64,000 nt of DNA from NCBI RefSeq assembly GCF_003334405.1, contig NZ_QOWM01000002.1; one strand, written 5' to 3'. Of the stretch, positions 22,914 to 24,041 are shown piece after piece. The notes beneath the pieces were generated by a model that saw nothing but the letters and a program-made list of their open reading frames with translations, ran no database searches and was not told the DNA's origin. Each line of letters begins with the position of its first letter. The stretch's first letter is position 1. A program made the translations under genes and the position numbers. Source of the stretch: Escherichia coli. Its GTDB lineage: Bacteria; Pseudomonadota; Gammaproteobacteria; Enterobacterales; Enterobacteriaceae.

Positions 22914-24041
22914 TTAACGGCGTCTATAGCCTTCCTCTAGCACCGCCTGTGTTCGAACGAGTTCATCTGCGAGTCGTTTCTCATCAGGTAGTTGCATCTT
23001 ATATTCGCTTGCCAGAACGGTGTTAGGCAAACCTGCCAGAGCATAATGCGCTTCTCCGGCTCCTTTCTCTGCACAGAGAACCAGACCGATGGGCGGATTT
23101 TCATCCGGTAGCGTCCAGTGCTCTTTGGCGTAGTTGAGATACATATTCATCTGTCCGGCATCGCTATAGCTGAATTTGCCCACTTTTAGATCGACGATTA
23201 GCAGGCAGCGTAAATGGCGGTGGAAAAACAGCAGATCGACACGAAACCAGTTGTCATCAATGCGTAACCTTCGCTGCCGACCAACAAAGGCAAAATCATC
23301 CCCAAGTTCCAGCATGAAATCCATCAGGTGGTTGATCAGCGCCTCCTCAAAATCGGATTCTGAATATTCATCTTTCAATTCCAGAAATTCGAGCACAAAG
23401 GGATCGCGTATCGCCTGTTGCGGAAGAATATGCGTCTCGGCAGGAGCGTGTTGTTGCAGCATGGCTGATTTGTCATGTGACAGTAGTGTCCGCTCATAAA
23501 ACTGGGTCGCAATTTGCCGCTCTAGCTGGCGAACAGACCAGCCACAGCGGAGCGTCTCTTTTTCATAAAAGCTGCGGGCGTCAGCGTTTTTAACGGAAAG
23601 TAAACGGACGTAGGTGGACCTGGGCAAGGGGAAAGATTTGGCAGACAGCGTCTGCCAAATCTTTGCCGATGGGAATTCTGCAGACGGTGTCTGCGGAATT
23701 CCCAATGGTGTTAATTCGCCAGACATTGTCTGGCGAATTTCAACATGTTGAAAAAAGAGGTAAAAAAGCCTCATTTGGCGTAAGTTTTTTGCAGAGAACC
23801 CACGCTTATACCTTAGACATAAATCCTTTGATAGTCGCTTGATTAGCTGCGCACCATACGCAGCCCTGGCCTCGCCACCTTGTTCAAATTCGACAATTCG
23901 TCGGCCAATTTCCTGGTACGTCGCGGTCATTAACGCGTTAACGCTACGTACCGTTTCCGTCCGGGCGCTATCGACCAGATGAATAATACCGTCGTGGATT
24001 TGCTGGTAGCCTGCTGTGGTTCCTTCTGAGAGCGATTCCAT
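22914..24041 (-). CDS. yhcG: DUF1016 / PD-(D/E)xK nuclease-superfamily protein YhcG
   Basis: 375 aa. The C-terminal half has a nuclease-like core (...RVDLLFFHRHLRCLLIVDLKVGK...), giving a D...D-x-K arrangement. Confidence 0.9.
   Translation of the reverse strand: MESLSEGTTAGYQQIHDGIIHLVDSARTETVRSVNALMTATYQEIGRRIVEFEQGGEARAAYGAQLIKRLSKDLCLRYKRGFSAKNLRQMRLFYLFFQHVEIRQTMSGELTPLGIPQTPSAEFPSAKIWQTLSAKSFPLPRSTYVRLLSVKNADARSFYEKETLRCGWSVRQLERQIATQFYERTLLSHDKSAMLQQHAPAETHILPQQAIRDPFVLEFLELKDEYSESDFEEALINHLMDFMLELGDDFAFVGRQRRLRIDDNWFRVDLLFFHRHLRCLLIVDLKVGKFSYSDAGQMNMYLNYAKEHWTLPDENPPIGLVLCAEKGAGEAHYALAGLPNTVLASEYKMQLPDEKRLADELVRTQAVLEEGYRRR
23635..23739 (-). repeat. In-frame 3 x 39 bp tandem repeat inside yhcG, each unit with a palindromic core
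   Basis: The cores are 23713-23739 (aattcgccagac-att-gtctggcgaatt), 23671-23703 (gggaattctgcagac-ggt-gtctgcggaattccc, one mismatch) and 23635-23661 (gatttggcagac-agc-gtctgccaaatc). Their centres are exactly 39 nt apart. They encode IRQTMSGELTPLG / IPQTPSAEFPSAK / IWQTLSAKSFPLP. Confidence 0.9.

Follow-up and report, generated by a model that had tools for sequence, protein, structure and literature searches.

The Escherichia coli gene yhcG carries three DNA palindromes, in frame, within its coding sequence (CDS). We examined it in a 64,000-nucleotide stretch of contig NZ_QOWM01000002.1 (assembly GCF_003334405.1), referred to here as the window. Judged from sequence comparison, the palindrome is an ancestral and integral part of DUF1016/YhcG genes, and the E. 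coli array is a local in-frame triplication of this family palindrome. We read the palindrome as a protein-bound, DNA-level cis site, probably of YhcG itself, and put the probability of this reading at roughly 45%. yhcG is an uncharacterised gene of E. coli K-12 and its family is a widespread candidate anti-phage nuclease (PDC-S02 in PADLOC). A palindrome kept at the DNA level throughout the family is the first concrete and testable clue to what DUF1016 proteins recognise.

Conservation and codon constraint of the palindrome

Loci encoding YhcG relatives were retrieved with a search seeded with a 10-sequence alignment. Species-representative genomes, metagenomes and viral contigs contributed 80 each to the 240 loci fetched, of which 233 (1.24 Mb) were usable. 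They include Acidobacteriota, Burkholderiales, Planctomycetota, Bacteroidota, cyanobacteria, Methanoperedens, DPANN archaea and viral contigs, and the encoded proteins are 29-97% identical to YhcG, nearly all of them 29-76%. Hairpins were called when they had a stem of at least 9 bp, a 3-nt loop and at most one mismatch. They were concentrated in one part of the gene. In the first 80 genome loci (500 kb), 83 of 139 hairpins lay 200-400 nt into the gene, and over the 233 loci 218 of 371 fell at +200 to +500 nt, against a background of about 1-2 per 100-nt bin. A perfect stem of at least 9 bp was present in this linker window in 136 of 215 distinct genes, compared with 3 of 215 when an equally large control window in their nuclease domain was examined. 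With perfect stems of at least 7 bp the counts were 184 and 24.

The palindrome was recovered in 21 of the 23 loci with less than 35% identity to YhcG, and it occurs in archaeal DUF1016 genes too. A common codon phase was shared by 190 of 198 unique hairpins. The family consensus, 25-27 bp long, is R-ATT-NN-S-CAGAC-RSY-GTCTG-S-NN-AAT-Y. One strong palindrome was found in 141 of the 215 genes, two in 24 and three in 2, so that the preliminary description of this DNA was about right in taking one Q-T-x-S unit per gene as the norm. No description of the element was found in Rfam 15 or in the searchable literature on yhcG, DUF1016, COG4804 and PF06250, a body of text that excludes most subscription journals.

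The peptide encoded by the palindrome (I-x-Q-T-x-S-x-E/K and variants) lies in a predicted disordered, insertion-tolerant loop of the N-terminal domain. In AlphaFold models the segment, aa 97-125, is a coil with a predicted local distance difference test score (pLDDT) below 50, between confident helices. Codon usage was tabulated for every Q-T-x-S motif found N-terminally in 55 genes (84 motifs, taken regardless of pairing) and compared with the background of the same genes. Serine was encoded by TCT, the codon that the palindrome needs, in 79 of the 84 motifs (p = 1.6e-63; background 13%), and glutamine by CAG in 75 of 84 (background 57%). For isoleucine the required ATT was used in 49 of 53 cases and ATC in none, where the backgrounds are 36% and 48%. 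The glutamate or lysine codon was GAA or AAA in 58 of 60 cases (background 53-56%), and threonine was encoded by ACA or ACG in 82 of 84 (no background computed). Where the preliminary description had allowed for distant homologues with non-palindromic codons, the opposite was found, and palindrome-specific codons are kept in distant DUF1016 genes.

Some lineages have other arms and consequently other peptides at the homologous site: GAGAC/GTCTC encodes ISETxSRK, GAATC/GATTC encodes ISESxIRK, CAGCC/GGCTG encodes IQQPxAAE, and CACGC/GCGTG encodes IRHAxRDE. Stem positions 2-12 were 92-100% complementary, and all four Watson-Crick pair types were common at positions 6-9; the percentage paired is partly circular, as the 134-sequence set was chosen as hairpins, whereas the codon test and the positional enrichment are free of this circularity. 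Covariation between the arms, on which the earlier proposal of a conserved structure depended, is present. Double-sided changes occurred in 10 of 11 pairs (342 cells in the 134-sequence alignment), and no shuffled alignment or slid register was comparable. Paralogous copies within one gene were 72% identical at positions 6-9, yet each was 95% self-complementary, and the spacings between within-gene copies were all multiples of three. The codons and covariation show that selection acts on the nucleic acid and that the peptide is a passenger. The family is a clear case of a nucleic-acid constraint dictating a protein segment across domains of life, with implications for the reading of "conserved peptide motifs" and for repeat annotation. 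Codon-optimised or synthetic DUF1016 genes would silently lose the element.

The yhcG array, its alleles and its breakpoints in E. coli

The YhcG protein consists of a DUF1016_N domain (aa 19-184; 130.2 bits, Pfam cut-off 32.8) and a YhcG_C nuclease domain of the PD-(D/E)xK type (aa 208-360; 191.8 bits, cut-off 32.5), and it is the match to PDC-S02. Repeat and palindrome scans recovered the three in-frame, 39-bp, hairpin-forming palindromes reported previously from this gene (Table 1). The 27-nt cores of the three units, at 23635-23661, 23674-23700 and 23713-23739, are 70-78% alike, and the unit peptides are IRQTMSGELTPLG / IPQTPSAEFPSAK / IWQTLSAKSFPLP. The period is constant, head-to-tail and a multiple of three, which fits an in-frame tandem repeat (a minisatellite, or variable number tandem repeat). 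Tandem Repeats Finder reported no repeat in 23000-24500 because the yhcG units are too diverged. The core CAGACNNNGTCTG occurs five times in the window, where 0.03 occurrences are expected. Of the arm lengths originally given (12, 15 and 12 nt), the palindromic form and the 3-nt centre stand, but the third unit in gene order has 15 perfect pairs and not 12. In one repeat scan palindrome 1 was read as 13-nt arms with a 1-nt centre. The earlier statement that both strands encode the same motif agrees with a plus-strand open reading frame (ORF) at 23663-23842, which encodes ...ILQTVSAEF...IRQTLSGEF. The 146-nt array folds at -68 kcal/mol as RNA, compared with -31.4 ± 3.6 for shuffled sequences (z = -10.3), and at -45.4 as DNA, compared with -14.7 ± 2.6 (z = -12).

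Table 1. Positions of yhcG and of the family palindromes in the window.
Feature	Position	Strand	Description
yhcG CDS	22914-24041	minus	375 aa; from the ORF list and Pfam
Palindrome 1 (first in gene order)	23713-23739	minus	AATTCGCCAGAC-AAT-GTCTGGCGAATT; 12 perfect pairs, 3-nt centre; encodes I-R-Q-T-M-S-G-E
Palindrome 2	23670-23704	minus	16-nt arms, 1 mismatch, 3-nt centre; encodes G-I-P-Q-T-P-S-A-E-F-P
Palindrome 3	23629-23667	minus	18-nt arms, 1 mismatch, inner 15 perfect; encodes A-K-I-W-Q-T-L-S-A-K-S-F
Extragenic copy	22874-22898	n/a	ATTCTGCAGAC-ACT-GTCTGCAGAAT; in the 59-nt spacer between the converging nanQ and yhcG stop codons
Extragenic copy	30012-30036	n/a	ATTCGCCAGAC-ACA-GTCTGGCGAAT; 15 nt past the gltD stop codon, bordering the gltF-yhcADEF block

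Two of the five core matches are copies outside the gene, in non-coding DNA, and that at 22874-22898 is conserved in O157-type and divergent yhcG alleles. Nine hairpins in the 64 kb have stems of 10 bp or more and a 3-nt loop; five of them belong to the yhcG palindrome family, all at the gltD-yhcG-nanQ locus. A BLAST search with one copy against 5,426 complete E. coli genomes gave matches at 1-4 places per genome, and among the matches inspected all were at this same locus. A dispersed mobile palindrome, such as a repetitive extragenic palindrome (REP) or bacterial interspersed mosaic element, a Rickettsia palindromic element (RPE) or a miniature inverted-repeat transposable element (MITE), is therefore rejected, being found in many scattered copies and not at one locus. 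Recent insertion is rejected as well, given that the palindrome stands at the homologous site in Salmonella and in most of the 215 distant genes. The idea of an RPE-like coloniser, put forward in the preliminary description, was not borne out. The element is confined to the yhcG locus in E. coli and is present at the homologous site throughout the gene family, and is thus ancestral to the gene; only the triplication is local.

yhcG was detectable in 4,465 of the 5,426 complete E. coli genomes, and the three-unit region in 3,418. Copy-number polymorphism had been predicted, and alleles with one, two and three units were indeed found among E. coli YhcG protein clusters. The O157:H7 allele examined, 1,050 bp long, has one unit and falls short of the K-12-type allele by exactly 78 bp, or two units. 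Single-unit alleles differ at their junctions (...QTMSGELTPLP, ...QTVSGESFPLP, ...QTVSAKSFPLP and ...QTLSAKFSPLP) which indicates several independent recombination events between units. A second lineage of yhcG alleles, about 91-92% identical, has 12-codon units in 1-3 copies. The gltD-yhcG arrangement occurs in Salmonella, with a single in-frame palindrome, AAATTCCGCAGAC-ACT-GTCTGCGGAATCT.

The divergent allele of E. coli 2014C-4423 (L002:1501-2613) is a mosaic. Outside a patch of about 50 codons round the palindromes (aa 84-130), its protein is almost the same as the O157-type one (L001); the patch itself resembles the Salmonella and Citrobacter orthologues. The pattern suggests gene conversion centred on the palindrome element.

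The length polymorphism of yhcG has been used before. The gene is one of the six typing loci of the lineage-specific polymorphism assay (LSPA-6) of O157:H7, in which amplicon length serves to separate lineages, and in the passages available from these papers it is treated as an anonymous length marker, the palindromes and their conservation in the family going unmentioned (PMC3514354, PMC8733641, PMC4609728). The likeness to the present result lies in the length polymorphism itself, the O157:H7 allele being two units shorter, and the palindrome units may give the molecular basis for yhcG length variation in O157:H7 lineage typing. The classical difference between LSPA-6 allele 1 and allele 2 is presumably this 78-bp indel.

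Breakpoints recur at the palindromes: in E. coli B, in a strain with an IS1, in AR_0086 and at the loci L051, L147 and L268. Both edges of palindrome 3 are involved. In E. coli B-type strains yhcG ends at its 3' edge (gene position 406) and foreign DNA follows; in strain 254D-1 an IS1 abuts its 5' edge (gene position 385, an IS1-associated truncation). AR_0086 lacks yhcG, and the gap between nanQ and gltD is reduced to 67 nt with a single palindrome. Its left flank is the nanQ side of K-12 and its right flank the gltD side, from which it follows that the K-12 block (yhcG and gltF-yhcADEF) is bracketed by the copies at 22874 and 30012 and that the empty site keeps one of them. Among the other relatives, L147 has a 5'-truncated DUF1016 gene with its breakpoint in the palindrome loop, and in L051 a partial second DUF1016 copy starts right after the palindrome.

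In the B-type strain B-DidR (NZ_CP115968.1, L003:4406-4880) about 470 nt of foreign DNA replace the 3' two-thirds of yhcG and the downstream palindrome. The B-type arrangement was present in roughly a fifth of the genomes with a three-unit array, as estimated from the spread of BLAST matches. Beside the truncated yhcG lies a 101-aa ORF annotated as 'transposase' (WP_000639208.1). It had no Pfam match, and the lead of a hairpin-specific transposase was dropped on this account.

The gltF-yhcADEF block, about 6 kb of fimbrial-type genes and gltF (window 24226-30008), stands between yhcG and gltD in this K-12-type window. It is absent from O157:H7-type, B-type and divergent-allele strains (L001, L002, L003 and L085 were compared), in which gltD lies 183 nt upstream of yhcG. 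At the gltD side the two arrangements diverge immediately after TAAGC. According to a published analysis (PMC7967276), the 5' region of yhcG is overlapped over 128 bp by G0-10703, an antisense or divergent RNA of stationary phase. This RNA, noted for the stretch upstream of yhcG (window 24042-24240), is outside the palindrome array.

A proposed protein-bound site and its alternatives

The obvious candidate reader of the palindrome is YhcG, as the model of its N-terminal domain suggests a helix-turn-helix of the ParB/KorB kind. The top structural matches of the model were the DNA-binding domains of ParB, Spo0J and KorB, with SopB and VirB further down the list. A sequence search of the PDB with YhcG found no solved relative, and NCBIfam has no model for it. 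Helix-turn-helix proteins of the ParB/KorB type bind inverted-repeat sites as dimers. By analogy, we infer that the palindrome would be the cognate site of its own gene product, bound by a YhcG dimer through the N-terminal domain, and that binding would bring the PD-(D/E)xK nuclease domain to the palindrome or close to it. Lying within the CDS, the site would travel with a gene that is often inserted promoterless into other operons. Its possible uses would be self-contained autoregulation, by a transcription roadblock, or site-directed cleavage and recombination, or both. The triplicated array of K-12-type alleles expands and contracts by recombination between units.

Whether the element acts as DNA or as RNA can be judged from the mismatches it tolerates. 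On the sense strand of the 11-bp core (positions 2-12) we counted 30 A·C and 14 G·T mismatches, and over the full called stems 51 and 26 (p = 0.006). The ratio is unbiased because detection penalised both kinds of mismatch equally. The synonymous codons AAG and GAG, which would give a U·G pair, were used in 2 of 60 cases against a background of about 45%. Ordinary functional RNA helices tolerate G·U, which is the opposite of the pattern in these palindromes. An Rfam scan at a permissive threshold gave only chance-level matches of microRNA type, far below gathering scores. The hairpins are followed on the 3' side by AAT-Y-N, without a T run, and the three E. coli hairpins are inside an ORF; an intrinsic terminator or attenuator is rejected because there is no U-tract. 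The mismatch pattern, the lack of a U-tract and the lack of an Rfam match favour a DNA-level element, though not decisively. The earlier proposal of a role at the level of the nucleic acid, with the palindrome as a candidate cognate site, is supported and extended by the palindrome codons and the co-varying arms. Its variant in terms of mRNA stability or attenuation gets no support, given the missing U-tract, Rfam match and G·U tolerance.

Frameshifting, internal start codons in the loop and a Tth111I-like site, GACNNNGTC, were dropped as not conserved or not supported. The loop codon of palindrome 1 is ATG in the K-12 allele (Met106; window 23724-23726), and some database entries (P0078, 270 aa) start there; in other alleles and homologues the equivalent codon is mostly CTG or GTG.

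Four observations weigh against a DNA site bound by a protein dimer. All 11 stem positions are symmetric though the copies within a gene differ, and a helix-turn-helix dimer needs no symmetry at positions that it does not contact, so base pairing fits this better. In cells, hairpins form much more readily in RNA than cruciforms do in DNA. The central base is more often C (114 cases) than G (63). Such a strand asymmetry is not expected of a purely symmetric duplex site; the excess of C could reflect a coding preference (leucine and proline over valine and alanine) or be functional. Finally, 48 of the 215 genes, about a fifth, have no stem of 9 bp or more even when one mismatch is allowed, so the palindrome is not indispensable.

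The strict complementarity of the arms, at positions that differ between copies, means that either intrastrand pairing matters (as hairpin or cruciform) or template switching keeps the arms identical. An extruded cruciform, or a hairpin in single-stranded DNA during replication, conjugation or transformation, could be the substrate of the YhcG nuclease, with the resulting breaks driving gene conversion, cassette exchange or gene mobility. We regard this as unlikely. The YhcG-type nuclease domain is nearest to the archaeal Holliday-junction resolvases, with Hjc, YraN and NucS as its neighbours by profile comparison (Kosinski et al., PMC1189080) and, in this analysis, by fold. The symmetry extends to every stem position, including those that vary between within-gene copies, and several independent breakpoints fall exactly at palindrome edges or centres. 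A 179-nt gene fragment starting at palindromes is duplicated on either side of a two-gene cassette beside an integrase in a viral contig, and where two palindromes flank a block in K-12, the yhcG-less strain has retained one. Replication slippage alone, however, predicts breakpoints at palindromes and needs no dedicated enzyme. In cells, palindromes of 25-33 bp are poorly extruded, self-cutting would be costly for a gene, and family-type palindromes were found in the flanks of only about 6 of the 233 loci.

A hairpin acting in the transcript also seems unlikely to us. It might cause a translational pause between two parts of the N-terminal domain, bind the protein to its own mRNA (as autorepression or as an RNA antitoxin in the manner of type III toxin-antitoxin systems), or serve as a processing or stability element. 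The very stable RNA fold (-68 kcal/mol) speaks for it, as do the ease with which RNA hairpins form and the compensatory changes that keep the pairing, since pairing matters most in single strands. The asymmetric centre is in line with a transcript too, and tandem hairpins of 36-39 nt at or in a nuclease gene recall ToxI repeats. The G·U-type mismatches are nevertheless the rarer kind on the sense strand (14 against 30 in the core), the codons that would give U·G pairs are avoided (2 of 60 against about 45%), no Rfam family was matched, the absent U-tract leaves no intrinsic terminator, and free intergenic copies occur in either orientation.

The protein-bound site could be extended into a self-contained module for site-specific recombination or homing, formed by the DUF1016 nuclease and the in-gene palindrome, in which the protein recognises its own palindrome, as duplex or cruciform, and cuts there. 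We consider this quite improbable. Such a module would move the gene and exchange neighbouring defence cassettes, with the palindrome as a miniature attC-like site run by a ParB-type helix-turn-helix/PD-(D/E)xK nuclease. It would explain the junction palindromes of E. coli and prophages, the free palindromes near RhuM, AbiE and toxin-antitoxin genes, and the enrichment of DUF1016 in variable restriction-modification loci.

There is a small chance that the palindrome is selfish or mutationally maintained and has no function for the gene. It would have arisen once in a tolerant loop, been kept perfect by arm-to-arm template switching and spread by duplication, much as the in-frame RPEs are. The disordered, insertion-tolerant loop, the range of 0-3 strong copies per gene and the fifth of genes without a strong copy are all compatible with this, and template-switch correction of quasi-palindromes is known in E. 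coli. Against it, one homologous site, one phase and the consensus (ATT...GAC / GTC...AAT) persist even where the proteins are 29-35% identical, and from one domain of life to another. Over such a distance synonymous sites should have become saturated, palindromes tend to be deleted, and there is no dispersal in the E. coli genome, unlike that of elements of the RPE, REP and MITE types. A functional peptide repeat, with Q-T-x-S selected and the palindromy of the DNA incidental, is hardly credible and was rejected: Q-T-x-S does recur in many homologues, but codon choice is fixed far past the needs of the peptide, lineages with different arms encode unrelated peptides at the homologous site, and aa 97-125 are predicted to be disordered.

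The palindrome differs in defining respects from each of the known systems that it resembles, namely parS and operator sites, in-frame RPEs, REP and RAYT pairs, selenocysteine insertion sequence (SECIS) elements and coding palindromes of Nematomorpha. The closest likeness for a protein-bound site is to parS (ParB/Spo0J) and OB (KorB), which are short palindromic sites for dimers of ParB-type helix-turn-helix proteins, a class suggested for YhcG by its N-domain model. One parS site of Bacillus subtilis lies inside the spo0J CDS, and the KorB operator has an odd-numbered centre. These sites have a conserved sequence, no covariation between their arms is known, and they are not bound to a single codon phase in the loop of one protein. 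YhcG, unlike ParB, has no recognised ParB CTPase domain and has a nuclease domain instead.

RPEs are likewise palindromic DNA translated within proteins, in tolerant regions. They are about 100-150 bp long, recent, and dispersed in many unrelated genes of one genus, whereas the yhcG element is 25-33 bp long, belongs to one gene family and is ancestral to it. REPs and their associated RAYT (REP-associated tyrosine transposase) genes, together called REPtrons, share with yhcG the link between a short hairpin palindrome and the gene of a nuclease-type enzyme, and occasional copies do flank yhcG. REPs are intergenic, occur in hundreds of copies per genome and lie on the flanks of the RAYT gene, whose HUH enzyme presumably acts on them. 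The yhcG palindromes, in contrast, are inside the CDS at 1-5 per genome, and the enzyme is a PD-(D/E)xK nuclease. Bacterial SECIS elements are conserved hairpins in a CDS that constrain the peptide. They act in the mRNA, follow a UGA codon, tolerate G·U and belong to selenoprotein genes, and none of this applies to the yhcG palindrome. The attC sites of integrons are imperfect palindromes of 57-141 nt with extrahelical bases, located at the 3' end of cassettes and accompanied by an integron integrase. An attC site was rejected for the yhcG element, which is 25-33 bp long, nearly perfect and inside the CDS (no search for an integron integrase was made). In the mitochondrial genes of Nematomorpha, perfect inverted repeats of up to 284 bp occur in the coding sequence of many genes in few species, with both arms translated and their origin unknown. 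They share the translated arms with yhcG and differ in having no family-wide element at a fixed position (PMC6649704).

Free palindromes and junctions in viral contigs

Searching every viral contig for exact copies of ATTNNNCAGACNNNGTCTGNNNAAT gave 42 matches, spread over 39 loci. In 40 of the 42, two or more of the three free pairs were complementary, so these are not chance matches. Twenty-five were in DUF1016 genes, three in short DUF1016 remnants (one in L262 and two in L268), and about a dozen were free and intergenic. Palindromes flanking the gene as a general feature, as in REPtrons, were rejected, as family-type palindromes flanked only about 6 of 233 loci, in part as remnants of a second DUF1016 copy.

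Several free palindromes have neighbours of a recognisable kind. In L281 one follows directly after an AbiEii gene, in L278 one lies beside an AAA_21 ATPase gene, and others are near portal and capsid genes. The palindrome ATTTAACAGAC-AAT-GTCTGTTAAAT stands between an HNH endonuclease gene and a RhuM-family gene in L274 (5813-5837) and L282 (1209-1233). DUF1016 and RhuM genes are strongly enriched beside genes targeted by programmed inversions, for instance those in Type I restriction-modification loci (PMC9881135). Two abutting palindromes (ATTCATCAGAC.../ATTGGGCAGAC...) were found at L261:9938-9985, 16 nt upstream of the start of a gene for a 568-aa large serine recombinase in a viral contig, and within 1.5 kb no remnant of a DUF1016 gene was detected.

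The duplicated fragment noted above is a direct repeat of 179 nt, 94% identical, in IMG/VR contig 2534681820_000001 (L268:4686-4864 and 6008-6186). It consists of a DUF1016 linker fragment beginning with two palindromes and brackets a cassette of two genes, for proteins of 176 and 126 aa, with the look of a toxin-antitoxin pair. Near the cassette are a tyrosine integrase gene and a 544-aa ORF, by eye of the ATPase-nuclease type. At L270:3207-3231 a palindrome lies exactly at the junction of two overlapping ORFs, which together resemble an AAA+ ATPase of the MgsA/RarA type (the AAA part, then MgsA_C). This palindrome may be an insertion into the linker of another gene.

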